Positions 106-43,901 of a DNA stretch of 64,000 bases are shown piece by piece (position 1 is the first letter of the stretch; the number at the start of each line of letters is the position of its first letter). The notes below the pieces were generated by a model. It searched no databases. It worked only from the letters and a program-made list of their open reading frames with translations, and was not told the origin of the DNA. The stretch lies in IMG/VR virus record IMGVR_UViG_3300042341_001208; one strand, 5' to 3'. Made by a program: the position numbers and the translations under genes. The stretch is from a virus (taxonomy: Duplodnaviria; Heunggongvirae; Uroviricota; Caudoviricetes).

Positions 106-636
106 ATGACTTCATCTCAGACGTTCACAATTTTACTCAACGATAAAGAGTCTTGGAATGAGCTCTTTAAGCTGCTCTATTTTGCCCAGTTTGAAGGAAA
201 AATATCAGGACCTACTTGGAGGGGATTAAAACACATTATGGAACTCTTCTCTTCGGATTTGGAGTCTTTTTACAAGACCGGAAATCTGGGAATAGTTGGA
301 GTGAAAAAGGATTGCAACCCTTATGGAGGACACTACGAGTCCTCAGTTGATTTTCTGAAGAACCTTCCTTATGGCATCTTTGATGATCTGAAGGCTGGAT
401 TTGTCAAGAAGATGAAAGAAGATCCTGCGGAGATTCAGTATGCAATTTCTCAGTGTCAACTTCCGAAAGGAACAGCAGAGACCGTATTTGGCACAGCTAG
501 ACTCTACCCAGAAAATGAGGTGCTGAACTTCTACAATCTGATGAAGCAAGAAGGTTATGTTCCACCGGCCGGATTTGACGAAGAAACTGGGGAAATTTCA
601 GATATACACAAATCTCTAGGGGACATCGGTCTGTAG
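106..636 (+). CDS. hypothetical protein; C-terminus ends SLGDIGL (shared D-L-x-x-V/I-G-L motif); TAG stop
   Basis: 176-aa ORF with ATG start; first gene of a paralog-rich block; no recognisable catalytic motifs. Confidence 0.45.
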   Translation: MTSSQTFTILLNDKESWNELFKLLYFAQFEGKISGPTWRGLKHIMELFSSDLESFYKTGNLGIVGVKKDCNPYGGHYESSVDFLKNLPYGIFDDLKAGFVKKMKEDPAEIQYAISQCQLPKGTAETVFGTARLYPENEVLNFYNLMKQEGYVPPAGFDEETGEISDIHKSLGDIGL

Positions 637-647
637 CATATAAGGAC

Positions 648-1226
648 ATGAAGCACATAAAACTATTTGAAGACTACTCAGACGAAGATTTAGCAGGACT
701 AATGTCCGATCTAGATGGGGTTGGTCTTATGAATAAAGTAATTGTTAGCTTCGGGGAAAAAATTCCAATTCCTCAAGAGGTGACCCATCCATCTTGGTGG
801 GCAGAGCCTTGGGGGAAATTTGCCATCGTGGAGATTTACACTCCAGAGAAAGGTCCAAAGGCAGAACAACTGGCTTTCGAAAAAATTAAAAAGGGAGACT
901 TCACTCAAGATTTATCGAAATTAGATACTGATGCTTACAAGAACAGAATTTCCAACATTCTGAAGTTTTTTAGTTCGGAGAGAATTCAGAAGGAAGCTCA
1001 AGAATCTCGGGACGTGGTGGAATTCAAAACTCGAATTCACGAAAAGTCGGGACAGATCCTATTTAACGAATGGGAAGGTATAGTCGAGAAATATCTCGAA
1101 GGAAAATCTGAAGATTATGCGAAAGAATTTTTCAACACGCTTTGGAAATCCACCCCCAAATCAGCCAAGCAAGAGATTGCCGGATCCACAGCAATAAAAG
1201 TTTTGCAAACCGAAGTAAATAAATGA
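648..1226 (+). CDS. hypothetical protein, member of MKHIKLFEDYSDE / DLxxVGL paralog family
   Basis: N-terminus MKHIKLFEDYSDEDLAGLMSDLDGVGL is nearly identical to the next gene's; internal GDFTQ motif shared with 1223..1795. Confidence 0.55.
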   Translation: MKHIKLFEDYSDEDLAGLMSDLDGVGLMNKVIVSFGEKIPIPQEVTHPSWWAEPWGKFAIVEIYTPEKGPKAEQLAFEKIKKGDFTQDLSKLDTDAYKNRISNILKFFSSERIQKEAQESRDVVEFKTRIHEKSGQILFNEWEGIVEKYLEGKSEDYAKEFFNTLWKSTPKSAKQEIAGSTAIKVLQTEVNK

Positions 1227-1795
1227 AGCACATAAAACTATTTGAAGACTACTCAGACGAAGAAATCAAGTCCCTCATGGGGGACCTTGCCGAGGTTGGT
1301 CTGGGAAAGAAATGGAGGGTTGTTGGATCAATATCCACAGTTACCCCAGAAGTCAACTACTATAGAAACTGGGAAGAACAAGTCCATGAGGTTTTCATTG
1401 TGGAAGTTGCTGCAGATTCAGAGAAGACGGCATATTTAGAGGCCTTTGAAAAACTTAAATCTGGAGACTTCACTCAGAAACTTTCAGATGAAATGGAAAA
1501 ATGGAATAACGTTCTGAATAAAATTCCAGAGGTGGGAAAAATTCTTTCCAAAGACAACATCATCAAAGCTGCTAATGGAAAGGCAAATCAGCAGCCAATG
1601 GAGAGGAAGGACATTACAGGAAATCCAATCTATGACGGAAAAATTAGATGGGTCATGACTGTTGATCTTGTGGGTCCGACTGAAGAGGCAATTCTAAATA
1701 AGATAAAGTCCATGACAGGAGGTGTTGTTAGCCCAGAGATGGAGGAATTTGTTAACGAAAATGTGGGTTGGAACTTAAGAGCAGAAGAAATATGA
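1223..1795 (+). CDS. hypothetical protein, tandem paralog of 648..1226
   Basis: N-terminus MKHIKLFEDYSDEEIKSLMGDLAEVGL; shares AFEKxKxGDFTQ motif with upstream gene; ATGA start/stop overlap. Confidence 0.55.
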   Translation: MKHIKLFEDYSDEEIKSLMGDLAEVGLGKKWRVVGSISTVTPEVNYYRNWEEQVHEVFIVEVAADSEKTAYLEAFEKLKSGDFTQKLSDEMEKWNNVLNKIPEVGKILSKDNIIKAANGKANQQPMERKDITGNPIYDGKIRWVMTVDLVGPTEEAILNKIKSMTGGVVSPEMEEFVNENVGWNLRAEEI

Positions 1796-1863
1796 GACGC
1801 TTAAAGTCATATAAAATATTCGAGGCTAATAAGCCTACAAGTCTATAACAATCGAAATTTATT

Positions 1864-1873
1864 TACCGTATCT
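1864..1873 (+). promoter_or_regulatory. degenerate copy (TACCGTATCT) of GACCGTATAT promoter-like motif
   Basis: 15 nt upstream of ATG 1888. Confidence 0.25.
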
Positions 1874-1887: not shown

Positions 1888-2547
1888 ATGGAAGATCAAG
1901 AATTGTGGGATCTCATGGGAGACCTTGAAGACGTTGGGCTTGGAGATAGTATCACCAAGGCTTATTCGATTACGGGATTTTATGAAGATGGGGAAGAGCA
2001 TCTCGACAACGACATTTTGACTGCTAATATCTTGAATGCTTTTATTGAAGTCAATGAATCAGATGGGGCTGATTTATTTCTTGACAAACTAGACGAGCCA
2101 AAATCTCCTCATATGGACCCTTTAGTTTCCTCCTGGTTTGGTGACAACTACCTTATAATCAAAGGAAACTTCACCAGGGTTAGATCAGTCGAAGAAAGGC
2201 TAAGAAAAGAGTTTGTAATCGAAAAAGAGGTTGAGCTTAAAGACTATAAAAAATTAGAGCTTAGTGGAAGTTCCGGATCTTACGGTGCGACTGGAATTTC
2301 AGGAACTCCTGGAATTTCAGGAACGACTGGATATGCTGGAACTACCACGGTTGTATATTCTTCCCCAGGATTGAGCGGGTCTTGGTCCACCTCAGGAGTA
2401 ACGGTTTCTGTCTCAACTCCAAAGATGATCCAAACTTCTGTCAAGATCGAAATGCCGATCAGGGAGCTAAAAGATCCACCAGAAGATGAGGTTGAGACCT
2501 ACGGACATCCTCTTTGGGAAAAGATTAAAGGTAAACTAGGATTCTAA
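1888..2547 (+). CDS. hypothetical protein with DLMGDLEDVGL motif and a Gly/Ser/Thr-rich low-complexity segment
   Basis: 219-aa ORF; N-terminal LWDLMGDLEDVGLG matches family motif; GSSGSYGATGISGTPGISGTTGYAGTT repeat. Confidence 0.5.
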   Translation: MEDQELWDLMGDLEDVGLGDSITKAYSITGFYEDGEEHLDNDILTANILNAFIEVNESDGADLFLDKLDEPKSPHMDPLVSSWFGDNYLIIKGNFTRVRSVEERLRKEFVIEKEVELKDYKKLELSGSSGSYGATGISGTPGISGTTGYAGTTTVVYSSPGLSGSWSTSGVTVSVSTPKMIQTSVKIEMPIRELKDPPEDEVETYGHPLWEKIKGKLGF

Positions 2548-7250: not shown

Positions 7251-10200
7251 ATGGCTCAAAAGTATTTGAGCAAAGCTTTGGCTTTCGCTTTAACCTTGTT
7301 TGCAACACAAGGAAATCTTCATGCAGCATGCGGGAATCTCACACCGAGTTTCAGTAATGCATCCAACAAAACCTGTGGTATACCTCAGGTAATTACACTT
7401 ACCAATACTTCCACTGGAAACAGTCGAAATGTAGCCACCTACAAGTGGTATGTGGGTACCACACTGCTGAGCACACAAGTTGGCAAATCCACCCAAAAAT
7501 ACACCATCAACACTGCAGGTAGCTATACCTTCAAGTTGGTGGCGATAGATACGGGTAAGGTGGGCTGTAAAGACAGCACAAGCACTACCATTACCATTTC
7601 GGCATCTGTTCCGAGAATTTTGGATGGCAATAGAGTAAATACCTATTCTCCCATTTGGGAAAATTGTATAAGTTCATTGGGGGTTCCTGACACCTTTGGT
7701 ATAAATATCAAACCTCAGGATTCATTGCGAAATTACACCATAGTTTGGGGGGATGGCACCGGTAATTCTACTGGCACTTTACTGCTTAGCAGCCAATCCC
7801 TCTACCATAAGTATAATTCACTAGGACAATTTACTTTATTAATCATCGGAACAAAGGGAAGTTGCACTGATACCCTTCGAGGTGTGGTGTCGAATGAAAG
7901 AAATCCTGTGGCTGGAATTGTGGGTCCACCAACAGGAACCAATGCAGGTTGTGTGCCCATTCGCATGCGTTTTATCAATAACTCTTCCTTAAGCTCACCT
8001 AGCACCACTTTTACCTGGGATTTTGGCAATGGCGAAACCATAGTAAGGGGATTCAATACCCACAAAGACACTTTATTTTATACCTATAAGCGCTTTTTGT
8101 GTAATGGCATCGTGAAACTTACTCAAACCAATAATTGTGGTTCGAGTTTTGCCACCTGGAACCCAATCATGGCTTCCTCTAAGGATACTGCCATTATTGC
8201 GCCGACCAATCCGACCAACTGCGATCTTGCTGTACCTTTTACGTTTAACAATACCTCTCAAAATCGTTTTTGTAGCACGCCAAACAATAAGAAATACCTC
8301 TGGGTTTGGGGCGACGGAACCAATTCTGGTTGGAGTACTTCTTCTGCTTCGCAGTCTAAAACCTACAGCAAGCGCGGTGTGTACCAGGTCTTGCTGATTG
8401 ATTCAAATGGCTGCGGTAAAGATACTGCAAGGTATACCTTGCGTATCGATAGCATGCCTACCATTTCTGCAGGCCCAGCGTCGGCTGCAGGATGCTCACC
8501 TTTGGTGGTAAACTTCAGAGACAACAGCATAAATGCAACTTCTAGAAATTGGGATTTTGGATATGCAACACCAACAAGCAGTGCGCAAAACCCAACCCAT
8601 ACCTATCAAACAGGTGGTACATATAGAGCAGTGCTGACAGTAGCCAACAATTGTGGATCATTAAAAGATACTGTCCTTATTACTGTCAAACAAAAAGTAA
8701 AGGCAAACTTCAATACACCGCTTACTGGCTGTGCTCCATTAACACAGAAATGGACCAATACATCTGTCAAAGGATTGGCAGGAACCCCTACATATTTCTG
8801 GGATTTTGGGGACGGAACAACTTCTACCCAGGTGAATCCTCCAGATAAAACTTACTCTACGTTAGGGACATATACCATTACACTCATTGCTACAGACTCA
8901 TGCGGTAAGGATACCATTAAAAAGACGTTTACCGTCCGTGGTAAGCCCTCTGCTACAATTACTTTGTTATCTTCAAGCCGGTGTGTGGGCAGCACTTTAG
9001 ATATTCGCTTTGTAACCTCACCCGTAAATACAGCTTCAGTTATCTGGGGTGATGGAACCAATGGCAGCAGTTATTTCGGATTGGGTGGTTCAGTTGACCG
9101 CACGGTTTCCAGAAAATACGACAGTCTGCGCACCTACAGATTTGGGGTAGTTATGGTGGATCCAAGCGGTTGCCGAGACACCAATTACCTAAACATTGCA
9201 ATGGATCCAAGGCCTACGATGAACTATACCTACACCACAACCAATGGTTGTGGTCCTTTGGATGTTACATTTACCAATACCAGTGCGCACAATGGAGGGG
9301 GTAACATCAACCAAATGAAGTTCTTATGGAACTTTAGTAATGGTATATTGGCTTACAGCAAAGATACTGCAGCTAGGTTCTTGCCGTTTAAAACAAGAGA
9401 CTCTATTTATCCCGTTAAATTAATTGGAACAAACGCCTTTGGCTGCAGAGATTCCATTACCAAAACGGTTCGAGTTTATCCAAAACCATTGAGTAAATTT
9501 AGTATTAGTGAAAAGGATGGTTGTGCACCTTTGGATATTACTACTACGAACAATTCTACTCCATATGACACGGGTTCTATAAACATAATGAAGTTTATAT
9601 GGGACTTTGGCAACGGCAGGAAAGCGTTTGGTAAAGATACTGCTGCTCGATTCTTAGCCAGTAAAACAAAAGATACTGTGTATACTGTTAGTCTGATATC
9701 TATTTCTGAACATGGTTGCCGAGATACCAGTTCAACCACAGTGCGTATTTATCCAAAACCTAAAGCCTTATTTACCAGAAGTAAAACTGAAGGTTGCAAA
9801 CCACTCGGGGTTACCTATGTCAACCAAAGTGTACCCTACGATACCGGCAATATATCAATAATGAGTTTTGCTTGGGATTTAGGAAATAGAATTACCTCAT
9901 TCGCTACAGAACCTGTGGGTATCTATAATGATGCGATAAACAAAGATACTACTTATAAGGTACGTTTGATTGCCACTAGTGAGCACGGATGCAAGGATAC
10001 TGCAAATTCCACTGTACTGTTACATCCGAATCCGGTGATTAAATTTGATATGAGCCGCACCAATGGCTGCGGTCCATTGCCTGTGAGCTTCTCGAACAAG
10101 AGCATCAACGGCGATGCATTTACTTGGGAGTTTGGCGTATATGGAACTGATACCGCAAAGAGTCCTAGTAAGGTATTCTATGGCCGCGATATTTTTGACT

Positions 10201-12344
10201 CAGTAGTAGTGGTGAAGCTTAGCGCGATGAGCAAATTTGGCTGCTTGAGTGATACGCTAAAAGACGAAGTGACGGTTTTTGGATTACCTATTGCCAACTA
10301 TCTAGTTTCAACAGATACCTTCTGTTTCCCTGACCTGACGCAGTTTTTGAACCAAAGTTTGGCTTCCTACAACTACACTTGGGATTTGGGCGATGGCACT
10401 GTAACAGGAACTACAAACCCCAAACATTTCTTCAAGAAAAGCTCAAGTCCATTTAGTGATACTACCTATTTCATCAAACTTGTTGCTACAAGCCCTTACG
10501 GATGTAAGGACACCGCAAACGGCAGTATGACCGTATTGCCTTACCCTATTCCAAAATTCAGTGTTGACAATCCTGCGGGTTGTGCGTCACACACAGTGAA
10601 GTTCAACAACCAGTCGGTAAACGTGTTGAATTACCTGTGGGTATTTGGAGATGGATATACATCAACCGATGTGAACCCTACCCATACCTTTATAAATACC
10701 GGTGCGAATGATACGGCGTATCAGGTTGTTCTTTATACCTACTCTTTGGATTGTGTAGACTCTACTAGTATTTGGATACCAGTTTACAAGCCCTCGTATT
10801 CATTCTTCAGAACGGACCGGGTAAATCCATGTGATGCTGGATATTTTAAATTCCAGAGCTTTGGCGAAAATGCGCCAATTGTGAAGTACAATTTTGGTGA
10901 TGGTAGCACATCAACTTTTCCCAACCTAACGCATTTATTCCCAACCTCACCTTACACCGATACAAGCTTCATCGTTACACTATACACCACAAGCAATCGC
11001 GGTTGCACAGACAGCTTTAAACGCACAGTTACGCTCCCACAGCGACTTTCTATCGGAATGAAAGACACCAGTTATGCGCTATGTGCTCCGACGGTAATTC
11101 AGTTTACAAACTACACAAGGGGTGCACGCACATATATTTGGGACTTTGGAGATAATGGAGGAAGTTCTCAGAAGAACCCAATTTATGAATACCAAAAACC
11201 GGGCTTATACGCATATAAGTTGTTTGCCTTTGACGCAAATGGGTGTATTGACAGTCAGGTTTCAAACGGCACTGTTCGTGTGGATGTGAGTCCTAAAGCG
11301 GATTTTGACTTTAGTCCTGGTAAAGGCCGCATGCCAAATGACAACCGTATTTTCTTTACTGACAAGAGCCGCAGTGTGATACCACTGACCTATTTCTGGG
11401 ATTTCTCGGATCCAGCGGGTATACCTGCAACGAGTACGATTCAAAATGCAACCCACGATTTTAGCGACTCTGGAGACTATAAAATCTGTTTGACGGTAGA
11501 TAATGGGGGTTGTAAGAATATATTTTGCAATTTTGTACGCATCGATCCGGCATTTCCAACCCCAGATTTCTCGGTGGGTGGGGATTCGGGTTGCCCACCT
11601 CTTACCGTGCAGTTTACCAACCTTTCTGTGAACTCTGACCGCTATATATGGTTCTTTGGTGACGGTGAAAGAAGCGAGGACAAAGACCCAGTCCATACCT
11701 ATAAGTACAGCGGATATTACGACGTGATTTTGATCGCAAAAGGTCCAGGGGGTGAGGGTAAAACGGAGAAGAAGCAGTTCATAAAAGTATTGAATGCACC
11801 ATTCACGTATTTCAATCTCACGCCCTCTATATTGTACCTTCCTGATGCCAAATTCACAACTCGAAACCTGACTACTGGAGCTGTAGGATATCAGTGGAAT
11901 GTGTACAACAGCAGCACTAGAAATCGAGTTGGGAATAGCCTTTTGGTGAATCCCTATTTCCAAGTAAACGATACGGGGCATTATGATGTGGAATTGATTT
12001 CAGTAAGCAGTCAGGTCTGTTATGATACCCTATTGTTGCCCAAGCCCATCTACGTGAATCCACGTGGCATATTGCATGTACCGGATGCCTTCACACCTAC
12101 CAATGATGAACGCAACGATGTGTTTAAACCAAGCGCGATAAACGTGCAAAAGGATTTCTATCTCTTCCAGATCTATAACAGATGGGGTGAAATCGTATTC
12201 GAAACCAAAGACCCCGATGAGGGTTGGGACGGCCGTAAAAAGGGCAAAATATGCCAAAGTGGAGTCTATGTATATAAAATCAATGCAAGACTCTTCAGCG
12301 GGGATGATATTTCAGCGGATGGTGTGGTTCACTTGATTCGATAG
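7251..12344 (+). CDS. giant secreted PKD-repeat protein with T9SS (gliding-motility-type) C-terminal sorting domain
   Basis: Signal peptide MAQKYLSKALAFALTLFATQGNLHAAC; at least 12 PKD-like repeats (GC.PL.V.F.N.S...W.FGDGT...NP.H.Y...G.Y.V.L.A...GC.DT); C-terminus LHVPDAFTPTNDERNDVFKP...YNRWGEIVFET...GWDG...GVYVY matches CHU_C/T9SS type-B CTD; TAG stop. Confidence 0.8.
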   Translation: MAQKYLSKALAFALTLFATQGNLHAACGNLTPSFSNASNKTCGIPQVITLTNTSTGNSRNVATYKWYVGTTLLSTQVGKSTQKYTINTAGSYTFKLVAIDTGKVGCKDSTSTTITISASVPRILDGNRVNTYSPIWENCISSLGVPDTFGINIKPQDSLRNYTIVWGDGTGNSTGTLLLSSQSLYHKYNSLGQFTLLIIGTKGSCTDTLRGVVSNERNPVAGIVGPPTGTNAGCVPIRMRFINNSSLSSPSTTFTWDFGNGETIVRGFNTHKDTLFYTYKRFLCNGIVKLTQTNNCGSSFATWNPIMASSKDTAIIAPTNPTNCDLAVPFTFNNTSQNRFCSTPNNKKYLWVWGDGTNSGWSTSSASQSKTYSKRGVYQVLLIDSNGCGKDTARYTLRIDSMPTISAGPASAAGCSPLVVNFRDNSINATSRNWDFGYATPTSSAQNPTHTYQTGGTYRAVLTVANNCGSLKDTVLITVKQKVKANFNTPLTGCAPLTQKWTNTSVKGLAGTPTYFWDFGDGTTSTQVNPPDKTYSTLGTYTITLIATDSCGKDTIKKTFTVRGKPSATITLLSSSRCVGSTLDIRFVTSPVNTASVIWGDGTNGSSYFGLGGSVDRTVSRKYDSLRTYRFGVVMVDPSGCRDTNYLNIAMDPRPTMNYTYTTTNGCGPLDVTFTNTSAHNGGGNINQMKFLWNFSNGILAYSKDTAARFLPFKTRDSIYPVKLIGTNAFGCRDSITKTVRVYPKPLSKFSISEKDGCAPLDITTTNNSTPYDTGSINIMKFIWDFGNGRKAFGKDTAARFLASKTKDTVYTVSLISISEHGCRDTSSTTVRIYPKPKALFTRSKTEGCKPLGVTYVNQSVPYDTGNISIMSFAWDLGNRITSFATEPVGIYNDAINKDTTYKVRLIATSEHGCKDTANSTVLLHPNPVIKFDMSRTNGCGPLPVSFSNKSINGDAFTWEFGVYGTDTAKSPSKVFYGRDIFDSVVVVKLSAMSKFGCLSDTLKDEVTVFGLPIANYLVSTDTFCFPDLTQFLNQSLASYNYTWDLGDGTVTGTTNPKHFFKKSSSPFSDTTYFIKLVATSPYGCKDTANGSMTVLPYPIPKFSVDNPAGCASHTVKFNNQSVNVLNYLWVFGDGYTSTDVNPTHTFINTGANDTAYQVVLYTYSLDCVDSTSIWIPVYKPSYSFFRTDRVNPCDAGYFKFQSFGENAPIVKYNFGDGSTSTFPNLTHLFPTSPYTDTSFIVTLYTTSNRGCTDSFKRTVTLPQRLSIGMKDTSYALCAPTVIQFTNYTRGARTYIWDFGDNGGSSQKNPIYEYQKPGLYAYKLFAFDANGCIDSQVSNGTVRVDVSPKADFDFSPGKGRMPNDNRIFFTDKSRSVIPLTYFWDFSDPAGIPATSTIQNATHDFSDSGDYKICLTVDNGGCKNIFCNFVRIDPAFPTPDFSVGGDSGCPPLTVQFTNLSVNSDRYIWFFGDGERSEDKDPVHTYKYSGYYDVILIAKGPGGEGKTEKKQFIKVLNAPFTYFNLTPSILYLPDAKFTTRNLTTGAVGYQWNVYNSSTRNRVGNSLLVNPYFQVNDTGHYDVELISVSSQVCYDTLLLPKPIYVNPRGILHVPDAFTPTNDERNDVFKPSAINVQKDFYLFQIYNRWGEIVFETKDPDEGWDGRKKGKICQSGVYVYKINARLFSGDDISADGVVHLIR

Positions 12345-25769: not shown

Positions 25770-25810
25770 AAGATGAAACTTTTAAAACAAAAAGATATAT
25801 AATAAACAAT

Positions 25811-26172: not shown

Positions 26173-26192
26173 ATAACAAGAAAGAACTACTT

Positions 26193-29739: not shown

Positions 29740-29777
29740 TTCGTTGGATATATAGGGGATAAAAATTACTCCCTTAA

Positions 29778-30890
29778 ATGGCTAAAACGTTATTACCCTT
29801 TGCTCTCTATGAAGAGCTTGAAAAGATAGAATCTTTAAATCCAGATGAAATGAGAAATTTCTTGTCTTCTCTTCAGAAGTATTGTGAATCTACAGGAAAA
29901 GATTTTACTAAAGTTTGTACTGACATTGGACTTGAAGCTCCTTCCTGGGCAGGAAAATTGACCCACAAACAGAATGTATTACTAAACTCCCTTATCTCAA
30001 GGGATTATTACAGTGAAGAAGATGAAGGAACCTCTTGGTCAATAAATCCCGAAACCGAAAGACTTGATGTAATTGGGAAATTTAAAATATCATCTTACAA
30101 TAAAGAGAAATGGGGGGAATTAATAGAAATGGGGATAAAAATTGGTAAGGTAAAAGGTTATTTCGACGTTTCCGATTGTGGCATTGATTCATCAGAGGGA
30201 TTCCCTACTGAAGTAACTGGGGATTTTAATATCAGTGGTAATAAATTAACCAATCTAGTTGGATGTCCCGTAAAAGTAGGGGGTAAATACAAATGTGATA
30301 GAAATAAATTAACCTCTTTAGAAGGAGCACCAGAACTATCAGACAATTTTGATTGCAGCGACAATAGTGGTCTAAGAAACTTAAAAGGAGGACCTAAGGA
30401 AGTAACCTCTATTTATTATGCTAATAGATGTAATCTGGATTCTCTAGAAGGGTTTCCTAGTATAATAAGTCCTTCTATATCCATTTATGTAGACAGTAAT
30501 AATCTTTATACACTAGAGGGTATTCCTCTAAGCCCTGCAATTTCTCCTTATAGAATCAGATGCAACAAGAACCCATTAAAAAGTTCAGTTTTAACAAATG
30601 CTTACAAAGAAGCAGCTAGAACTGGAAGCTGGGCAGTTGGATATCTAAGTATGTTTACCGATCCTGAATTCATCAAAACCGGAAAAGCTCCAAAGGATCC
30701 AATTAGAGAAAAATTATCTCCTGCGAATTTAAAGAAAGAAATTGAAACCAACGGGGAAGCTTTTGTAGTTGGTCTTAAATCAATCTGGAAGGATTTCAGG
30801 GTTCAAAAAATTCTAAAAGGAATTGAAATCCCAGAGGACACCAAAGCAGACGCAGAATTGCTAGCAGATTTAGATGACGTTGGACTTTAA
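29778..30890 (+). CDS. repeat protein (about 22-aa N.LTSLEG.P units), C-terminus ELLADLDDVGL
   Basis: Tandem units GDFNISGNKLTNLVGCPVKVGG / KYKCDRNKLTSLEGAPELSDN / CSDNSGLRNLKGGPKEV / RCNLDSLEGFP; terminal DLxxVGL family motif. Confidence 0.5.
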   Translation: MAKTLLPFALYEELEKIESLNPDEMRNFLSSLQKYCESTGKDFTKVCTDIGLEAPSWAGKLTHKQNVLLNSLISRDYYSEEDEGTSWSINPETERLDVIGKFKISSYNKEKWGELIEMGIKIGKVKGYFDVSDCGIDSSEGFPTEVTGDFNISGNKLTNLVGCPVKVGGKYKCDRNKLTSLEGAPELSDNFDCSDNSGLRNLKGGPKEVTSIYYANRCNLDSLEGFPSIISPSISIYVDSNNLYTLEGIPLSPAISPYRIRCNKNPLKSSVLTNAYKEAARTGSWAVGYLSMFTDPEFIKTGKAPKDPIREKLSPANLKKEIETNGEAFVVGLKSIWKDFRVQKILKGIEIPEDTKADAELLADLDDVGL

Positions 30891-30897: not shown

Positions 30898-31428
30898 ATG
30901 AAGTATCTAGAACTATTCGAAGCATTTAATCCCTCCGGGGATAAATTGGGATTTGGAAAACAAATTCAATCCCATATACAACAATTAGTTGGGAAGAATT
31001 TCGGAACCCCTTATGTGGTTACTTCAGCAGAGGTAACAAGAGCTGAAAGTGAAGGGTTTGCAGATCAAAGCGGACAAGGGGATTTAGTTCTAACTTTCAA
31101 AAAAGAATCTCCGGATGAGCTGGACGAACTTATTTCTGATTTAACCTCTGTAGGATTATCAGAAGAAAGGAAGATAGAATTTGGGTGGGACGTTATTGCT
31201 ACGATGGAAACAGAATCTTCTCCAGACGGAGACCCTCTTTGGGATTTAACCTATAACATCTATACAGACTCCCCCGTAGTTTTTCTACAGTTCCCTGAAA
31301 TATTCAGGGGTGAAGTAAAACACCTCTACGACATGTCTTATGGAGTTGGCAGCGTAATCAAAGGGTTAATAGAGAAAACAATAAATCGTTTAGTATACGA
31401 ATCTAAAATGGGTAATAAGAACAAGTAA
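30898..31428 (+). CDS. hypothetical protein of MKxLELFE / DLxxVGL family
   Basis: N-terminus MKYLELFEAFNPSG; internal ELDELISDLTSVGLSEE. Confidence 0.5.
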   Translation: MKYLELFEAFNPSGDKLGFGKQIQSHIQQLVGKNFGTPYVVTSAEVTRAESEGFADQSGQGDLVLTFKKESPDELDELISDLTSVGLSEERKIEFGWDVIATMETESSPDGDPLWDLTYNIYTDSPVVFLQFPEIFRGEVKHLYDMSYGVGSVIKGLIEKTINRLVYESKMGNKNK

Positions 31429-31433: not shown

Positions 31434-31769
31434 ATGAATCAAACAGTAAACCTACTTAAGACCGGATCCGAATATATTTTAGCTCTTCCGAGAGGGAAAA
31501 GACTAGAAAAAGGAGATTTTGCAATAGGGGTGTCCAACTCTTATTCAAAGGTTTCTTCTGTTAAAGAAGGGGATTATTTTGATGCTAGAATTTACTATCT
31601 TGAAGATGGTAGCTGTCTAGTAAACCCAATTAAAATTGTGGGATTTGAATCCGATATAGATCCAGAGGTTCTAACAAAAATAAAGGAACTTAAAGAAGTT
31701 CCTTTGTATATCGAGATCGTAGAAAACCAGATCGTTCGTGAATCTGGTAAGATTAAAGTTATTTATTAA
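31434..31769 (+). CDS. hypothetical protein
   Basis: 111-aa ORF; last + gene before strand switch. Confidence 0.4.
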   Translation: MNQTVNLLKTGSEYILALPRGKRLEKGDFAIGVSNSYSKVSSVKEGDYFDARIYYLEDGSCLVNPIKIVGFESDIDPEVLTKIKELKEVPLYIEIVENQIVRESGKIKVIY

Positions 31770-33746: not shown

Positions 33747-33756
33747 TAGCTAGAAA

Positions 33757-35310
33757 TTATACTAAACCTTTATCTTTCATTCCACCTTTTACCATCATTG
33801 CTGCTTCAATTCTAAGCTTTCCTTCCGGTGTATCTTTAATTTTTAGTGTTTCTTCGTTTACTCCAAATTCAGGATATTTTTCTTTGATTCTAGCATAAAC
33901 CCATGATAGGATTTCAAGATTGCTTAAACCTTGGTAGTATTTCATGATATTGAATAGATCCTGATCTGTTGCTTTTCCTCCTGACATTTCTTCAGCTTTT
34001 CTTAAAGCCATTTCAAATACTCCATAAGCTACTGAAGAGAAATCTGCTCCTTTTGAAAGTGGTTTAGCTTTTTCTGGATTCTTAACAATATCTTCCAAAT
34101 CTCTATCTGAAATTCTTCTAATAACATCAAGATAAGCTTTTAATTTACCTGCCGCTGATGGACCGATAGCATCTGAGTAGATGTTGTAGATCGTATCTGT
34201 TGGTAGGTCTCTCCAATTTGTAGCTCCCTCGTCTTCCATTTCATCCTTAAGAGATGCTGCTGCATCTGTCCAAGATCTAGGGGTTGGGAATTTAAGAGTT
34301 GCTTTTTCTGTATCTAAGTAGTGGAATAATTCTGGATTTCTTTCTACGAATCCAACAATTTCTGGTTCGAAATCCCCTGGTTTTGATTTAGCCCATTTAG
34401 ACCAAGATTCAACGTCAGGAACAAAGTTAACGATATTGAATCTGTCTGCCATAGCAAAGTCAAATTCTGCAACTTCTCCAGATCCGCTAACGTCTTCTGG
34501 TCTGTTACCAGCTGCTACGATAACCCATTTATCAGGTAATTGATAAGTTCCAACTCTACCCATTTGAACGAACTGCATGATAGCATTCAAAATATATTTG
34601 TTTGCTCTGTTCATCTCGTCCATGAATATAAATCCACCTTTACCTTCTGGTCCATTGTCCGTAGGTAAAACGATAGGAGGATTTGATCTTGTTATTCCTT
34701 TACCTGCAGAAATTAATCTTCCTTCTTCTCCATATTTAGGTTCTTCAATATCAACAACTTTAGGTATTCCTAAAAAGTCTTCCGGTGACATAAATTGCAA
34801 GTCTAAGTTAAGCATAGGAACTCCGGCTGCTTGAGCTGCTTGACCAACGATTTGGGTTTTTCCTATACCTGGAGCTCCGTAGATGAAGATAGGTTTTGCT
34901 CTACCTCCTCTTTGTTTAGATCTGTAAAGTTTACCTAACATGCTCTTAAGTTCAGTAGCGTCCACGTTTCTAACTGTTTGATCTTCTCCTGTATATTCCA
35001 GAGGAACTTGAGCTTCATCTAGGTCAGATATTAAAGACTCATTGACAGGATTCATCTTTGCAAATTCTGTTCCTTTATATAGATTATTAATCTGAGAAAC
35101 TATATTTCCGTTTGCTGGGTCAAAATAAGTAACTGAAGGTGTTCCTTTTTTTGGACCTGCAGGAATCATTTTGATAATACCATCTTTGATAGCCTTTGCG
35201 ATTCTAGCTATCCATCCACCGGCTTTAGAGAGAAAATCTCCAAATCTTGATTCGTTTGTTGTGCTTCTGTTGTTTACATAATCATCGAAGCTAAATACTC
35301 TTTTTCCCAT
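33757..35310 (-). CDS. AAA+ ATPase, MoxR/AAA_5-like
   Basis: Walker A IYGAPGIGKTQIV, Walker B FIFMDEMNRA, sensor region VIVAAGNRPEDVSG; adjacent to vWA + DUF2201 partners. Confidence 0.7.
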   Translation of the reverse strand: MGKRVFSFDDYVNNRSTTNESRFGDFLSKAGGWIARIAKAIKDGIIKMIPAGPKKGTPSVTYFDPANGNIVSQINNLYKGTEFAKMNPVNESLISDLDEAQVPLEYTGEDQTVRNVDATELKSMLGKLYRSKQRGGRAKPIFIYGAPGIGKTQIVGQAAQAAGVPMLNLDLQFMSPEDFLGIPKVVDIEEPKYGEEGRLISAGKGITRSNPPIVLPTDNGPEGKGGFIFMDEMNRANKYILNAIMQFVQMGRVGTYQLPDKWVIVAAGNRPEDVSGSGEVAEFDFAMADRFNIVNFVPDVESWSKWAKSKPGDFEPEIVGFVERNPELFHYLDTEKATLKFPTPRSWTDAAASLKDEMEDEGATNWRDLPTDTIYNIYSDAIGPSAAGKLKAYLDVIRRISDRDLEDIVKNPEKAKPLSKGADFSSVAYGVFEMALRKAEEMSGGKATDQDLFNIMKYYQGLSNLEILSWVYARIKEKYPEFGVNEETLKIKDTPEGKLRIEAAMMVKGGMKDKGLV

Positions 35311-35372
35311 TTTGGTTTTATTGATTTTTTAATTTTTAATTTGGGATATATATCAACAAACAAAAACGAATT

Positions 35373-35765
35373 ATGAAAAACATTAAATTTTTTGAGGACT
35401 TTAATTCCGAAGTTCCATCCCAAGAAATCCACGAAGGACACGGAGAAATGCAGAACTACATGTTCTTTCAAAATCTTCACACGCTTAAAAATGCAATTGA
35501 AGAATTGATTGAATTAGATCCTGTTAAAGTCGATGGTATTCTTGCAGACGGTCACGGATGGGCTTTAGATCACATTGCTACATCAGTAGATGACGTTGAG
35601 GAGGTTTATCACTTCTTATCTAACTCTATTGAAATGGGACATGAAGGGGAAGAACACGGGGAAGACCACGAAGAAGGTCACGAAGAAATGGGGATGGAAA
35701 TCCAAGTTTCACCAGACGAGGTAGAAGTTGAAACTGAAGACGAAGACGAAGAAGACGAAGACTAA
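35373..35765 (+). CDS. acidic His/Glu-rich small protein (MKNIKFFEDF family N-terminus)
   Basis: N-terminus MKNIKFFEDFNSE; C-terminal HEGEEHGEDHEEGHEE and EDEDEEDED tracts. Confidence 0.45.
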   Translation: MKNIKFFEDFNSEVPSQEIHEGHGEMQNYMFFQNLHTLKNAIEELIELDPVKVDGILADGHGWALDHIATSVDDVEEVYHFLSNSIEMGHEGEEHGEDHEEGHEEMGMEIQVSPDEVEVETEDEDEEDED

Positions 35766-36857: not shown

Positions 36858-37612
36858 AGATCTGGTAAACCACCAATCTTTTTAGCTCTATTCTTATAGA
36901 GAGTGTAGATTTCTTGTTTCTTGTTAGCAGGAACAATTCCTTTAGCTATTCTATCATTTAAGAATTTGATGATCATTTCTTGAAAAGGTCTTTTTCTAGT
37001 TTTTGCCTCTGCATAGATTCCATGTAGATTAGCATCAACCTCATCTTTTAGTTTATAGTACTTATAATAGTTTTCTGGATTTGATTGGATTTTAATCCTC
37101 TGAGCATAATTTCTCTTCATTGCCTTAGCAGGAATAGTATTCCATCCTCTCTGGGTTAAATGCTCTATCTCATGTCTGATTAAATTTCTCAACTCTGGTG
37201 CAAGTTCTACATAACATTGAGGTTCAGTAGCAGGATTTACAGTAAGTTCAATATAGAGAATTGCTGGGTCCTCGTCTGCATTACCGTCCAGAATAAAAGA
37301 TTCGGTGTATGTAGGAGCTTCGTCCCTTACGATAACCAATTTAACAAAGACGTCAAGATTTGTACCCGGATCTAAATAGTTTCCAACGTCCAAGAATTGC
37401 ATGTCGTCTATTAGAGTTTCAAAACTTGGAACATCGTCTTTTTCGGTGTACCTAATTTTTACTCCTTCATATTCACCATTTGGTGTATTACTATCTTTTA
37501 TGAGTTTCATAGCATCGGCTGAAATTTGACCAACTAATCTGTCATACTTTCCTTCGAAAAGAAAACCCTCAGATTCGGAAATAAAATCAGCAAAAGACTT
37601 AGTGAAACTCAT
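36854..37612 (-). CDS. hypothetical protein
   Basis: 252-aa minus-strand ORF, first of a 3-gene minus block. Confidence 0.45.
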   Translation of the reverse strand: MSFTKSFADFISESEGFLFEGKYDRLVGQISADAMKLIKDSNTPNGEYEGVKIRYTEKDDVPSFETLIDDMQFLDVGNYLDPGTNLDVFVKLVIVRDEAPTYTESFILDGNADEDPAILYIELTVNPATEPQCYVELAPELRNLIRHEIEHLTQRGWNTIPAKAMKRNYAQRIKIQSNPENYYKYYKLKDEVDANLHGIYAEAKTRKRPFQEMIIKFLNDRIAKGIVPANKKQEIYTLYKNRAKKIGGLPDL

Positions 37613-37973
37613 CCAATTTTTTAATTTTAAAAATTAAAGATTCCATGGCTCCCGGATATTTTCCGTTGTCGCTAGATCTCTCTGGATATTCGGTTAAATA
37701 AGGATCTTCTAATTTCACTTTCTTACCTTTATGATTAGAAACGGTTTTATCCTCGTAGTAAAGAAGATCTAAATCCATTAGGGATCCAAGCATTTTATCA
37801 ACTTCAAAATCTTCTTCTTCTAAACCGGTTAGATTTATAAACATTTCTATGGCATATTTCGGATCTATCCAACCCATCCCAGAAGTAACTATATCAATGA
37901 TATTATCTGTAGCGGATTTAGGATCCATAGATTCGTTCAAAAACTCACCATATTCTTTAATATTGATTCCCAT
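37599..37973 (-). CDS. hypothetical protein
   Basis: Start set to internal Met (MGINIKEYGEF) at 37973 so it abuts rather than overlaps the upstream gene. Confidence 0.4.
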   Translation of the reverse strand: MGINIKEYGEFLNESMDPKSATDNIIDIVTSGMGWIDPKYAIEMFINLTGLEEEDFEVDKMLGSLMDLDLLYYEDKTVSNHKGKKVKLEDPYLTEYPERSSDNGKYPGAMESLIFKIKKLDEFH

Positions 37974-37975
37974 TT

Positions 37976-38722
37976 TTATAAAAGTTTTTTTGCTTCTTCG
38001 AAATCTTCTGCAGTTAAATTCCATCCAGCTATTTTTTCTTTGATGAATTTCTTAGCTTCTGGATATGTTGCGTCAGTGTTATCTTTTAAATATGCTAACA
38101 ATTTTTCTCTAATCGCCGGATGAATTCCTTCAGATTCTAAAATTTCTTCCGGAAACTCAAATTCTAAGCTTTCGGTTGTCAATTTAATTTCTGATAAAAT
38201 CTTTTTCAATTCCTCCTGGACTTTTATTTTATCTCTTCTAGATGCTCCTCCTTGACCGATGAAAACATTAAATTCTTCGATCATATCATCGGTTAATTCC
38301 TCATCCAGTTCAACTAATGGTTTTTCTGAATTTTCCCAATCGTCTGTTCCAAATCCTATTTCCATCACCGGAACGTCGTTAGCAGCAGCTTCTATTCCCA
38401 TTGAATCTGGATCTTGGTATTCTTGAGCATCTTCGTCCCAAATCTTGTAATTTTCCTCGAACTCCGGAGAGGTTGAATCAAAATAGAAAATGTAGTTTTT
38501 ACCTGTTTTTTGATCTTTTAATGTTGCAAACTCAAGAAAATCTGTAGATGTTAATTTTAAGTTGTGCTTGGAGGGATTGATTCCTCTAAGATCCTCAACT
38601 TCTCTATAATCATCTTCTCTGTACCCGGGAGGGAGGTTTCCGGATGGAGAGGTAGTTACACCAAATAAGTCTGCCTCGTTATTTTTTAGATGAAATTCAT
38701 CGAAAGATAAAATTTTTGCCAT
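37976..38722 (-). CDS. acidic hypothetical protein
   Basis: 248-aa ORF, Asp/Glu-rich (DDWENSEKPLVELDEELTDDMIEEF). Confidence 0.45.
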   Translation of the reverse strand: MAKILSFDEFHLKNNEADLFGVTTSPSGNLPPGYREDDYREVEDLRGINPSKHNLKLTSTDFLEFATLKDQKTGKNYIFYFDSTSPEFEENYKIWDEDAQEYQDPDSMGIEAAANDVPVMEIGFGTDDWENSEKPLVELDEELTDDMIEEFNVFIGQGGASRRDKIKVQEELKKILSEIKLTTESLEFEFPEEILESEGIHPAIREKLLAYLKDNTDATYPEAKKFIKEKIAGWNLTAEDFEEAKKLL

Positions 38723-38894
38723 TGATTTAAATTAATTTGTTTATATATCCCAGTCACATCAAAATCTTTTGTTTGAAATATTTCAATTATTTTTTAATTT
38801 TAAGAAACTTTTCTATAAAAACCATCTAAAAGAATTACTTATATTCCCTGGAGAAGTATCTATTATTATCTAGGAGCCGCCGTTAAGGTCTCAA

Positions 38895-38942: not shown

Positions 38943-39548
38943 TTATTTTAAACTTAGAAGGTATTTAGTTTGATCTATCAGACTCAAAATTTCCTGAATT
39001 ATATTAAAGATTTCCGGATCTTTATTTTCATCGAATGCAGAGATACATTCTTCTCTGTAACAAACATCTAAATGAGCTATGAATCTAGGAAGTCCGTCTG
39101 GGGATTCTGGAGAATCGTAGTTATCTAATTTTAATGTTCTTTCCGAATCATTAAAAACGGGTCTACCATATTTTCCCATGATTGATTCTATCAAAGTATC
39201 TGAGATTTCAATAAACTCTTCAAAGAAATTATCTAAAGCTTTGTGCTCGGAATATGAATTGGTCTGCCAATGCAAAAGTTTTGCTTGAGTCATATTTTGA
39301 AGAACCCTACTTGCAACCTGGCTTGTTTTAGAGCTAGGGGTTTGGGTCTTATCTGGAGCTGCACTAGGAGTTTTGGGAATACTAATAGGTTTTAGAGGGA
39401 TAATTTCCGCATCAGTCTCTACCTCCGGACCTTTGGGTTGTTCTGGGTTATATTTTCTTTTACCTGCAGGTTCTATAATTTCACCAAAGGCACTTAGATT
39501 TAATACGTTGTCCGCCATATATTTTTTTTCTTTTTTGTTATATATCAA
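38943..39548 (-). CDS. hypothetical protein
   Basis: 201-aa minus ORF; alternative start at Met11 (39518); Pro/Thr/Ser-rich middle. Confidence 0.45.
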   Translation of the reverse strand: MIYNKKEKKYMADNVLNLSAFGEIIEPAGKRKYNPEQPKGPEVETDAEIIPLKPISIPKTPSAAPDKTQTPSSKTSQVASRVLQNMTQAKLLHWQTNSYSEHKALDNFFEEFIEISDTLIESIMGKYGRPVFNDSERTLKLDNYDSPESPDGLPRFIAHLDVCYREECISAFDENKDPEIFNIIQEILSLIDQTKYLLSLK

Positions 39549-42531: not shown

Positions 42532-42541
42532 TATATAGAGC

Positions 42542-42736
42542 ATGATTTTTATAGATTTAAAGAAGGAGAAATCTCTGGATTCAGCTTTAAAGAAGCTAAA
42601 AAATAAATTTTCTGAACGTAAGACAAAAGACGAACTTAACGAGAGAAGAGAATTCACCAAACCATCTGTGAGAAGAAGAAATCAAATAAGAGACGCAAAG
42701 TATAGGCAATCTATCCGTACGTCCGAGATAAATTAA
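42542..42736 (+). CDS. rpsU: ribosomal protein bS21 homologue
   Basis: 64 aa, basic; LDSALKKLKNKFSERKTKDELNERREFTKPSVRRRNQ parallels bS21 (ALRRFKR...RRREFYEKPT..RKR). Confidence 0.55.
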   Translation: MIFIDLKKEKSLDSALKKLKNKFSERKTKDELNERREFTKPSVRRRNQIRDAKYRQSIRTSEIN

Positions 42737-42738
42737 AT

Positions 42739-43605
42739 TTGAAAAATATAATTCTATATGAGGAATTTTCCGACGGATTGAACCGTTTGAGATCGATTTT
42801 CGAATCTCTAGAATCAAATCCTATTGCTAACATAGAGGTTTATAACCGAAATATGGAAGCATCCTATCCGGATAAATTATTCTTTTTAGATATTATAAAT
42901 CCGGATGTTATCGTAGATTTTGGGTGTGCAGACGGAACGATCCTTTCCAAGATGAAGGAGAAAAATCCAGATGTTAAATTGATAGGATACGATCTTAGTA
43001 AAGCTATGCTTGCTAAAGCAAGAGCTAAACTAGGACCAGACGTTTTATTAACCGATTCTTGGAGTGAGGTTCAATCTGAATTGGAATCTTATGATAAACC
43101 AGCTCTTGTATTATCTTCGGTAATTCACGAAGTTTATTCTTATTCTCATCCTAAAGAAGTTAAAAAATTCTGGGAGGATAGAGTATTTGGTGGAGACTTT
43201 AAATGGATAGTAATCAGAGACATGATTCCTTCTGTTGAAATGAGTAGAAAAGAAGCATCCGAATTCCAGGACGATGTTGACAAAGTTAAATCTGCGGCAG
43301 ATCCAAAATACTTAAAGTCTTACGAAGAAAAGTGGGATGATATTGGAAGCAGCTATAAATTCTTAGCTCACTTTTTACTAAAATATAAATTCACAGATAA
43401 CTGGACTAGAGAAGTAGCAGAAAACTATCTTCCTCTTTCTCTTGAAACTCTATACAAGAAAATACCTCCGGGATATGAAATTATTTTTGAAGATAATTTT
43501 GTTCTTCCCTATCTAAAAAAAGAAGTCAAAAAGGACTTCGATGTAGACATTAAGCACACTACACATGCTAAAATGATTATAGAAAATAAAAATTTTGAAA
43601 AATGA
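42739..43605 (+). CDS. class I SAM-dependent methyltransferase (MKNIILYEEF family N-terminus)
   Basis: Motif I VIVDFGCADGTILSKM; acidic motif II-like region. Confidence 0.5.
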   Translation: MKNIILYEEFSDGLNRLRSIFESLESNPIANIEVYNRNMEASYPDKLFFLDIINPDVIVDFGCADGTILSKMKEKNPDVKLIGYDLSKAMLAKARAKLGPDVLLTDSWSEVQSELESYDKPALVLSSVIHEVYSYSHPKEVKKFWEDRVFGGDFKWIVIRDMIPSVEMSRKEASEFQDDVDKVKSAADPKYLKSYEEKWDDIGSSYKFLAHFLLKYKFTDNWTREVAENYLPLSLETLYKKIPPGYEIIFEDNFVLPYLKKEVKKDFDVDIKHTTHAKMIIENKNFEK

Positions 43606-43901
43606 AAAATCTAGCACTCTATGAATCTTTCACCGAATCTTTAAACGAATCAAGAACAAGAAAGAATCTAATGCACGAACTTCTTAACATTCCAGAAGAT
43701 AAAAAAATCTCTGACATTTATAAGAGCGGTAAGAAATTAGCAGAAGAATTGGTTGCAGCAATCAAGAAGAGCAACATAGTTCCAGAAAAAGAGGTTCAGA
43801 AAAAAGCTACCTCGATGCTAGCCTTTGTTGGTAACTGGCCTAATGATCCTAAGAATTCCGTTTTTGATGTTGCTCTGAGACACGTCAAATCTCTCTTTTA
43901 A
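43602..43901 (+). CDS. hypothetical protein (MKNLALYESF N-terminus)
   Basis: 99 aa; N-terminus shares the MKN..LYE.F leader. Confidence 0.4.
   Translation: MKNLALYESFTESLNESRTRKNLMHELLNIPEDKKISDIYKSGKKLAEELVAAIKKSNIVPEKEVQKKATSMLAFVGNWPNDPKNSVFDVALRHVKSLF

Follow-up and report, generated by a model that had tools for sequence, protein, structure and literature searches.

Why should proteins with nothing else in common begin with nearly the same short peptide? The question is raised by a 64-kb stretch of DNA (64,000 nucleotides, hereafter the window) from a tailed virus of the class Caudoviricetes, IMG/VR record IMGVR_UViG_3300042341_001208. Several of its small proteins share an N-terminal leader, and some also carry an acidic box ending in Val-Gly-Leu (VGL). 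The first-pass annotation, which reported both motifs, suggested either capsid-targeting or ejection leaders removed by a prohead protease, or docking peptides of a polymorphic system. We find that the leader is real and positional and extends beyond that account. It is, in our judgement, probably a capsid-targeting propeptide of the kind known from phage T4, expanded to tens of cargo proteins per genome.

The six N-termini singled out by the first-pass annotation are all present where it placed them, and a strict pattern, MK[HYN][IL]x[LF][FY]E.[FY], opens six window proteins. One leader, MKHIKLFEDYSDE, heads both a 192-amino-acid (aa) protein (648..686, + strand; gene 648..1226; 31 bits in a position-specific scoring matrix) and its 190-aa paralog (1223..1261, +; gene 1223..1795). 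The others are MKYLELFEAFNPS (30898..30936, +; gene 30898..31428), where the predicted local distance difference test (pLDDT) score is below 50 at residues 1-15; MKNIKFFEDFNSE (35373..35411, +), on an acidic, His/Glu-rich 130-aa protein with an isoelectric point of 4.1 and a poly-acidic tail; MKNIILYEEFSDG (42739..42777, +, with a TTG start), on an S-adenosylmethionine (SAM)-dependent methyltransferase; and MKNLALYESFTES (43602..43640, +), on a basic 99-aa protein. The identity of 42739 as a methyltransferase and the acidic His/Glu-rich nature of 35373, both proposed earlier, were borne out. A shorter core, [FY][EDG][EDSA][FY], occurs 14 times in the 80 open reading frames (ORFs; 20,312 aa), and eight of these occurrences start at residue 7 or 8; residue shuffles place a mean of 0.08 cores there, with a maximum of 2 in 2000. 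With a position matrix trained on relatives, the six canonical leaders outscore all but one of 16,072 internal 13-mers.

Looser versions of the leader open six further window proteins, mainly on the minus strand. A register-shifted form (MGKRVFSFDDY; MGKRVFSFDDYVNN, 35269..35310, -) begins a MoxR-type AAA+ ATPase (gene 33757..35310). Two variants score at p about 4e-4 in the matrix: MSFTKSFADFISE (37574..37612, -), with I-S-E at residues 11-13, on the 252-aa HEIEH-motif protein of gene 36854(-), and MAKILSFDEFHLK (38684..38722, -; gene 37976..38722). Another, ending L-N-E (MGINIKEYGEF; MGINIKEYGEFLNE, 37932..37973, -), is read from an internal Met of ORF 37599..38024, a gene called as 124 aa in a 391-kb relative. 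Weaker still are 60847 (MRKVYDFSTFNF; MRKVYDFSTFNFIYE, 60847..60891, +; p 3e-3), with I-Y-E followed by A, and 62963 (MGRLLNIQDFKSF; MGRLLNIQDFKSFHLME, 62963..63013, +; p 0.02), an uncertain member. Neither these two nor 33757(-) and 37599(-) had been listed before. The 60847 product has 702 aa, with an Ala/Pro linker after the leader variant and a peptidoglycan-binding, endolysin-like region. Pfam and PHROG scans of the motif-bearing small proteins returned the methyltransferase, the MoxR/VWA genes, a Dps-like protein and this endolysin-like region, and otherwise no informative families. An export signal was also considered and set aside. The leader is acidic and amphipathic and has no hydrophobic stretch of the kind expected of a Sec, Tat or lipoprotein export signal, and the CHU_C domain, which would mark type IX secretion system (T9SS) sorting, is confined to a separate 1697-aa protein.

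The leader is not peculiar to this window. A scan of IMG/VR with one degenerate DNA version of it gave at least 137 matches at at least 119 loci. Among the matches listed, nearly all lie at ORF starts and are followed by diverse sequences, on contigs of 4-640 kb with 20-43% G+C. Positions that the pattern had left free are enriched among these matches, namely K5 (98 of 119), [IV]11, N12 and E13 (61 of 119), and conservation ends after residue 13, giving the unit MKHIKLFE[ED]F[IV]NE. The same pattern found 70 matches in 596 Gb of bacterial and archaeal genomes, of which only 16 are at plausible ORF starts. Those that most resemble the leader come from contigs of metagenome-assembled genomes (MAGs), and one of them matches an IMG/VR phage gene. 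Canonical phage-type leader genes occur on a 254-kb contig labelled as a Bacteroidetes MAG (CAIWBA010000291.1, our locus L232) and on other MAG contigs among loci L226-L293; these are probably mis-binned contigs of huge phages. On this distribution the leader is virus-specific.

Within single genomes it can be frequent. In LR756500, a complete 462-kb relative, about 30-35 of 687 crude ORFs begin MK[YF]I.EYE[ED]F[IL].E. In one 40-kb stretch of LR745206 (locus L133), a variant, MK[HY]LKK[FY]NES, opens about 17 of 62 ORFs, many of them paralogs, and locus L013 holds a tandem array of eight genes with a constant N-terminal module and variable bodies. A 42-nucleotide (nt) consensus leader searched in INPHARED for a cultured carrier matched uncultured huge phages only, and Maribacter phage Molly shows no leader within the 50 kb read. 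As far as the searchable literature goes, the earlier suggestion that the leader is undescribed for this phage group stands: the exact strings KLFEEF, KLFEDF, KLYEEF and KLYEDF were not found in it, and the huge-phage papers examined make no mention of the motif.

The claim that the rest of each protein differs holds for most carriers and fails for the proteins at 648, 1223 and 1888, which BLASTP identifies as paralogs. An all-against-all comparison recovered just two paralog groups among about 16 carriers. One comprises 648 and 1223 (42% identity over 117 aa), with 1888 as a weak third member. The other comprises the leucine-rich-repeat (LRR)-like protein 29778 and, related over the full length, L001:8264-9091 and L001:6469-7377, which lie upstream of 29778 and both combine the leader with a C-terminal VGL box. 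The remaining carriers have no detectable similarity outside the motifs, so that duplication of whole genes, which the first-pass annotation had named as the alternative, accounts for a minority. The leader is instead found on different recognisable folds, those of a SAM methyltransferase, a MoxR AAA+ ATPase and an LRR protein here, and those of a 2H phosphoesterase and an ATP-grasp enzyme in relatives. N4-like phages and phage G have leaderless homologs of the MoxR ATPase, whose alignment to it begins no earlier than residue 94-142. A LigT-like enzyme is leaderless in Maribacter phage Molly, has the leader in contigs from the IMG/VR scan, and in its LR745206 huge-phage homolog bears no more than a loose N-terminal variant.

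Genes 648 and 1223 are identical over their first 41 nt (648-688, 1223-1263), while their proteins are 42% identical, which points to gene conversion or recombination at the leader. At locus L012, in a 400-kb relative, a single leader-bearing gene takes the place of an LRR-like gene and a leaderless gene of the window; it looks as though leader and body had been separated by an inserted cassette. A conserved trio of genes encoding a MoxR-type ATPase, a DUF2201_N metallopeptidase-like protein (HEILH) and a DUF2201/VWA protein occupies 31766-35310 (-) in the window and 200318-203494 in LR756500; the leader variant is on the ATPase in the former and on a fused DUF2201 protein in the latter. The PHROG label 'HNH endonuclease' for these families looks misnamed.

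Structure prediction places the leader outside the folded part of its carriers. The AlphaFold2 model of protein 648 has a mean pLDDT of 84.9, with 45-57 at residues 1-28 and more than 90 in the domain; residues 1-11 are unstructured, the VGL box forms a low-confidence helix (12-25), and the folded domain starts at residue 30. Foldseek found no match to this confident model in the PDB (best E 2.6). In the model of protein 30898, pLDDT drops below 50 only in the leader, in an internal box (74-87) and at the extreme C-terminus. The models thus suggest that the leader is a detachable peptide. Leader and box are nearly invariant in homologs. Leader codons stay near background (AAA 82% versus 77%, GAA 87% versus 80%), and replacements are chemically conservative (F/Y, E/D, I/L). 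The constraint therefore lies on the peptide rather than on the RNA, and an RNA-level explanation was set aside after this codon analysis.

When are these genes expressed? The window contains ten GATATATA boxes, all intergenic, where 3.7 would be expected anywhere, and eight of the ten lie directly upstream of leader or VGL-box genes or their operons. GATATATA(A) boxes are found at 6853, 25794, 29747, 35345/35347, 38742, 39539, 60729, 60801 and 60814, 12-45 nt upstream of starts, and also at loci L011, L012, L013 and L053. The late-promoter-like box at 29747..29754 (+) is upstream of 29778; that at 38742-38749 lies beside the leader gene 37976(-); a palindromic form, GATATATATC (35345..35354), separates the divergent leader genes 33757(-) and 35373(+); and three boxes at 60729-60821 precede 60847. 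In the IMG/VR loci, the box stands 12-40 nt before the start of 22 of the 137 leader genes among the matches listed, where about 0.5 would be expected. In LR756500 it precedes the genes for tail sheath (phrog_34521, E 3e-129), tube, portal, protease, major capsid protein and baseplate wedge. Because it stands before these structural genes, we take GATATATA to be the likely late promoter of this huge-phage clade, the counterpart in function of T4 TATAAATA, and sharing it would make the leader genes late as well. The box would also serve as a late-promoter marker for the clade.

Some further sequences carry this box. Three near-identical genes of LR756500 (367386-367550, 382764-382928 and 429749-429913), each behind a GATATATA box, encode 54-aa helix-turn-helix proteins (MEDFKLLKLS.VCKEFNVTRQTLYNWKEKG) and may be copies of a repeated mobile or regulatory unit. 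Two Dps/ferritin-like genes, at 38943-39548 (-) and L001:7425-8036, likewise sit behind GATATATA boxes; their products have N-terminal extensions of 60-70 residues (MADNVLNLSAFGEIIE.. and MATLKEFLTMRENME..) and may be further cargo with degenerate leaders. The box at 25794 falls within 535 bp that contain no convincing ORF (25657-26192) and that gave no tRNA match and no Rfam match.

The head genes of relatives are of T4 type. The LR756500 portal belongs to Portal_T4 (E 2e-70). The gene after it encodes a 632-aa protein with a Peptidase_S77 domain, the family of T4 gp21 (42.6 bits, cutoff 27), and a long C-terminal part, like the gene of phage PTm1 annotated as scaffold plus protease. The capsid protein is of Gp23 type (E 8e-34). 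More than 591 relatives of this capsid family are present in IMG/VR and 3129 in the protein database at E <=1e-100, and two IMG/VR contigs contain the capsid gene together with MKHIKLFE genes. At locus L149, three leader genes lie between the protease and capsid genes, the interval occupied in T4 by scaffold gene 22, and three more follow the capsid gene.

The end of the leader resembles a protease site. T4 gp21 cuts after [LI]-x-E, its site in gp23 being Glu65. Of 118 leader proteins, 41% have an [ILV]-x-E whose Glu is residue 13, a motif that other positions show at 1.4%; in LR756500 the count is 18 of 28 leaders. Comparable T4 sequences, taken from the T4 record, are MLKEQLIAEA in gp22, MEGLIEA in gp67, MAKINELLRES in gp24 and FLTEAEIGG in gp23. 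The clade capsid protein begins M..QLINEAEV..TWAPVIEEATG, a parallel to T4 gp23 ELLNKWKPLLEGEG, and the clade protease-scaffold protein begins ..KKLLILER where T4 gp21 has PQLLIETW. In LR756500 and other relatives, then, the leader appears to end like a gp21 substrate.

Among known systems, the capsid-targeting sequence (CTS) of T4 is the closest. According to PMC8442874 and PMC5694885, which cite Mullaney and Black (1996), the internal proteins IPI-III carry the CTS MKTYQEFIAE, and gp21 removes it along with the short propeptides of Alt, gp22, gp24, gp67 and gp68. Like the CTS, the leader is an N-terminal peptide of 10-20 residues common to unrelated proteins, with an M-K-x-hydrophobic start and an aromatic residue (Phe in T4) at position 7. 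In most relatives the leader also shares E-F-[IL]-x-E with the CTS at a three-residue offset, in a peptide too short for a significance test. Further likenesses are the variable tandem gene arrays, late expression (the timing of the leader genes being deduced from the box), and the Portal_T4, Peptidase_S77 and Gp23 genes of leader-bearing relatives. The leader differs in being three residues longer, with its own consensus, and in occurring on tens of genes per genome, including those for the MoxR ATPase, the methyltransferase and the ATP-grasp protein. The clade protease is, moreover, fused to the scaffold, and a second, terminal box is present in some lineages. The acidic protein at 35373-35765, with its leader, helical middle and poly-acidic tail (..VETEDEDEEDED), recalls in layout the T4 prohead core protein gp67, in which MEGLIEA... 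is followed by a poly-Asp/Glu tail.

The propeptides of phiKZ-like phages, which the first-pass annotation had also named, are a more distant parallel. In phiKZ, 201phi2-1 and SPN3US, a protease related to gp21 processes the propeptides of head and ejection proteins at [SAG]-x-E (PMC5694885), and the SPN3US paralogs gp53 and gp54 have identical N-termini with 34% overall identity (PMC5694885), which matches the pair 648/1223. These phages are likewise giant, with many internal head proteins and a protease that cuts after Glu, and some window leaders end in S-D-E, as at a [SAG]-x-E site. Unlike the leader, however, their propeptides are mostly longer than 100 residues and have no common short consensus, and they belong to a different lineage without the Portal_T4 and Gp23 sequence families. 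What is new here would be the consensus, the larger client set, a clade in which we found no cultured carrier, the fused protease-scaffold and the companion box.

The following sequence of events would account for these features. Late in infection, a set of unrelated proteins, among them the MoxR ATPase, the methyltransferase, LRR-like proteins, acidic small proteins and the peptidoglycan-binding 702-aa protein, would be made alongside the structural proteins. Their flexible 13-residue leaders would bind the scaffolding core, in this clade the fused gp21-type protease and scaffold, and this binding would carry them into the prohead. The S77 prohead protease would then probably clip the leader after Glu, at [ILV]-x-E (residues 11-13) in most relatives and at L-F-E8 or x-x-E13 in the window. 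The mature proteins would be retained in the head and reach the cell together with the DNA, so that the leader probably marks proteins that are packed into the virion and injected. Core binding, cleavage, packaging, head retention and ejection are steps that we infer; what the sequences show is the motif with its modularity, flexibility and spread, its confinement to viral sequence, its tie to a late-type promoter and the T4-type head module of relatives.

The capsid-targeting proposal of the first-pass annotation thus gains from the late-type promoters, the T4-type module in relatives, the [ILV]-x-E ending in 41% of leaders, the position of the leader outside the fold and its restriction to viruses; part of the motif sharing on which it was founded is tandem paralogy, and encapsidation and cleavage are deduced. 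The leader genes of LR756500, about 30-35, fall within the range of giant-phage head-protein sets; PMC7411985 puts the SPN3US head at about 50 proteins.

Several observations weigh against this proposal. Portal, protease and capsid genes of the window phage were not found within the 84 kb read, and a protein-database search with a clade capsid protein placed none of the 120 listed sequences (of 3129) on the 391-400-kb contigs of the window lineage. The link to the head module runs through relatives with only about 39% UvsX identity and through shared motifs. Within the window, just 2-3 of 12 leaders (36854-, 37599- and 60847) have the [ILV]-x-E end, the others ending in SDE, NSE, SDG, TES or NPS. 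The closest cultured capsid relatives, Tenacibaculum phage PTm1 and others with about 33% capsid identity, are leaderless in the 50 kb examined, which for PTm1 surround the head genes. About 17 leader ORFs in 40 kb of LR745206 would be many species to package, homology to the T4 sequence, a mere 10 residues, cannot be proved from so short a likeness, and the LRR-like and PKD-type proteins could equally be external parts of the virion.

The second motif, the acidic VGL box, raises a related question. In the form D[LI]xx[VI]G[LIMH] it is present at the positions reported for it. It occurs eight times in 108 proteins of the window and its flanks (shuffle mean 0.40, maximum 3), and seven of the eight copies are at a protein end, either forming the very C-terminus or lying no more than 27 residues from an N-terminus. 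Its terminal copies are spread over at least five unrelated families, with the consensus [DE]Lxx[LM]xDLxx[VI]G[LH]. Directly after the leader stand DLAGLMSDLDGVGL (687..728, +) in protein 648, whose residues D21, L22, G26 and L27 are invariant in 12 homologs, and EIKSLMGDLAEVGL (1262..1303, +) in protein 1223. Without a leader, MEDQELWDLMGDLEDVGL (1888..1941, +; gene 1888..2547) forms the extreme N-terminus, as does the box of L001:2140. C-terminal copies had been noted in genes preceding leader genes, and they are there: DAELLADLDDVGL (30849..30887, +) ends the LRR-like 370-aa protein of gene 29778..30890, and a variant, IHKSLGDIGL (604..633, +), ends ORF 106..636, which is however only the 3' part of a 270-aa gene beginning upstream of the window. 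The ortholog of that gene in the 400-kb relative has a leader, MKHLKPYSLFEA, and ends in DLSDIGL. The internal copy, DELDELISDLTSVGL (31114..31158, +; residues 73-87 of protein 30898), is invariant in 12 homologs and is probably exposed, since it is the sole internal segment of its model with pLDDT below 50.

In form the box is an acidic amphipathic helix ending in hydrophobic-Gly-hydrophobic, as DLxxVGL here and as NADDFGFF in LR756500. There, 14 ORFs end in [IL]xNADDFG[FL][FLI](DN), and the two motifs belong together because 12 of these 14 also have the leader. In the leader-scan loci a C-terminal box is rare, present in 7 of 254 leader proteins among the matches listed. It is, judging from these sequences, a lineage-specific terminal peptide that accompanies the leader in some lineages. 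The idea that cleavage occurs after VGL was rejected, as several proteins end precisely with the box, and it does not vary among homologs. A cut after the Glu of the leader is the likelier one; after Glu13, it would put the box at the new N-terminus of 648 and 1223.

What might the box bind? Clade portal proteins nearly all end in similar acidic hydrophobic-Gly-hydrophobic tails, such as DEDPLAGLG, EDIPGLEL, GEIDLGL and DDLGLGGLGI (for example L147:5669-7363, L149:3613-5295 and L156:6373-8034, portals beside the capsid gene among loci L143-L222), and in T4-like heads the portal C-terminus faces the capsid interior. Because of these tails, our guess is that the partner would be the scaffold or the inner shell. 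The C-terminal tails of herpesvirus and P22 scaffolds, amphipathic helices that bind the major capsid protein and so anchor to the capsid interior in systems with an assemblin-type protease, are similar in form; they have no sequence relation to the box, which, unlike them, sits on many different proteins. Encapsulin cargo peptides are short, usually C-terminal and sometimes N-terminal, and tether unrelated cargo inside an HK97-fold shell through a G-S-L core. The box lacks this core, and ferritin/Dps-like genes nearby lack the box. Nor did Pfam or PHROG scans match any gene with the box to an encapsulin, a family also absent from the tables of neighbouring genes. Mimicry of the tail of single-stranded DNA-binding protein (SSB) or of sliding-clamp-binding tails was also considered; the N-terminal and internal copies presumably fit it poorly.

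With two terminal motifs at hand, an obvious alternative is that they bind each other. In such a docking code, the leader of one protein would recognise the acidic VGL or FGFF tail of another, often its neighbour's product, and variable proteins would assemble head-to-tail into complexes or arrays in the style of docking domains or polymorphic effectors, with no need for a capsid interior. This would explain why the motifs co-occur far above chance in the NADDFG[FL]-ended proteins of LR756500, why, at two places in the window, a leader gene begins 7 or 11 nt after a gene whose product ends in VGL or IGL, and why a constant module precedes variable bodies in arrays such as the eight genes of L013; both motifs are also predicted to be flexible and exposed. 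Yet 247 of the 254 leader proteins in the leader-scan loci, among the matches listed, lack the box, and the leader must therefore work alone. In 648, 1223 and the L013 array both motifs lie inside the same 27 residues, mutual binding of two acidic peptides is disfavoured, and neither the [ILV]-x-E ending nor the link to a T4-type head module is explained. The constant module with variable bodies expected of polymorphic toxins or effectors was seen; no toxin or immunity domains were recognised, immunity genes not having been searched for systematically. Overall, we regard a docking code as unlikely. A role in expression seems to us slightly less plausible still. The shared 5' coding sequence would then be a favourable A/U-rich translation start with Lys as second codon, spread by recombination in hosts that do without Shine-Dalgarno pairing, and the peptide would have no role. 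The A-rich upstream regions without a Shine-Dalgarno sequence, the sign of gene conversion in 648/1223 and the very high local frequency of leaders in L133 fit this idea, and huge phages are thought to redirect translation initiation (PMC7162821). It accounts poorly, though, for synonymous codons that vary as elsewhere while amino acids are kept or conservatively swapped, for conservation that stops sharply at a Glu at residue 13, and for a leader that structural, replication and metabolic genes lack, as do the abundant late genes (capsid, sheath) with most to gain.

The peptides could also be handles for AAA+ machinery, the leader, the acidic tail or both serving as a degron or adaptor motif for the ClpA/B-like ATPase of the phage (40402..42531) or for the MoxR-VWA system, and so timing the unfolding, activation or removal of late proteins. 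Such tags are usually short terminal peptides, the same 12-kb neighbourhood encodes both a 709-aa Clp-type ATPase and the MoxR/DUF2201/VWA trio, and ClpA ranks with the gene families that related aquatic phages share most widely (PMC12619734). Against this, the MoxR ATPase itself bears a leader variant, the leader sequence has no precedent as a Clp tag, and leader genes inside the head module and the gp21-type motif would go unexplained; we think it very unlikely. Least credible is the notion that the termini have no separate function and are remnants of tandem duplication in fast-evolving families. The two paralog groups of the window and the paralog arrays of L013 and L133 invite it, and it is already contradicted by the unrelated folds that carry the leader (methyltransferase, MoxR ATPase, 2H phosphoesterase, ATP-grasp and LRR), by leaderless homologs outside the clade, and by conservation of the leader across phages with capsid identity of only about 33-60%.

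The identity of the source phage gives these readings their setting. The window has 36% G+C and is densely coding, with the plus strand predominant, and metagenomic contigs bearing it reach 97.6 kb. An ortholog of 30898, 93% identical, lies on contig 3300071517|Ga0620987_00179 of 391,244 bp, and a 64% identical ortholog on Ga0620987_00175 of 399,968 bp, which would put the genome at about 390-400 kb. At the DNA level, a search of 50,697 phage records matched the window to one entry alone, an uncultured phage of 642 kb. Immediately downstream of the window lie UvsX-like and DnaB-like genes whose best matches, at about 39% identity, come from Lak phages and from uncultured huge phages (LR756500-504 and LR745206, 462-735 kb), an assembly of the Mahaphage type. 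Huge phages of that type have predicted Bacteroidetes hosts (PMC7162821). A Bacteroidota host fits the A-rich start regions, which lack a Shine-Dalgarno sequence, and the 1697-aa protein encoded at 7251-12344, in which PKD repeats and a CHU_C (type IX secretion sorting) domain are combined with an N-terminus resembling a signal peptide. Its gene is preceded by a GATATATA box, and the protein could be a virion surface protein or be exported via the host T9SS. The window phage would thus be a member of a T4-related, Mahaphage-like assemblage of huge phages infecting Bacteroidota. Elsewhere in the window, a 16-kb island of glycosyltransferases, aminotransferases, epimerases and a 2OG-Fe(II) oxygenase (44700-60500), closed by a tRNA-Ser(TGA) gene (60490-60575), may encode a phage glycan or sugar-modification pathway.

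A broader proposal can be made tentatively, and we hold it to be possible rather than probable. The leader, joined by the terminal box in some lineages, would be a cargo code readable from sequence across a very large uncultivated clade of Bacteroidota huge phages, in which tens of proteins per genome are pre-packed and injected. Enzymes would be among them and may include the MoxR ATPase, the methyltransferase, the 2H phosphoesterase and the ATP-grasp protein. The box would copy the C-terminal tail of the portal to dock on the scaffold or shell, a two-signal form of loading between the T4 sequence and encapsulin peptides.

Most genes of Bacteroidota huge phages lack a known function. Should the leader prove to mark capsid cargo, the set of proteins that is packaged and injected could be read from metagenomic sequence for thousands of phages, and candidate host-takeover and anti-defence proteins would be singled out among them. 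Foreign proteins could also be loaded into such capsids with the leader as their tag, much as is done today with the T4 sequence. The T4 way of filling the head with accessory proteins would then be old, and greatly expanded in very large capsids.

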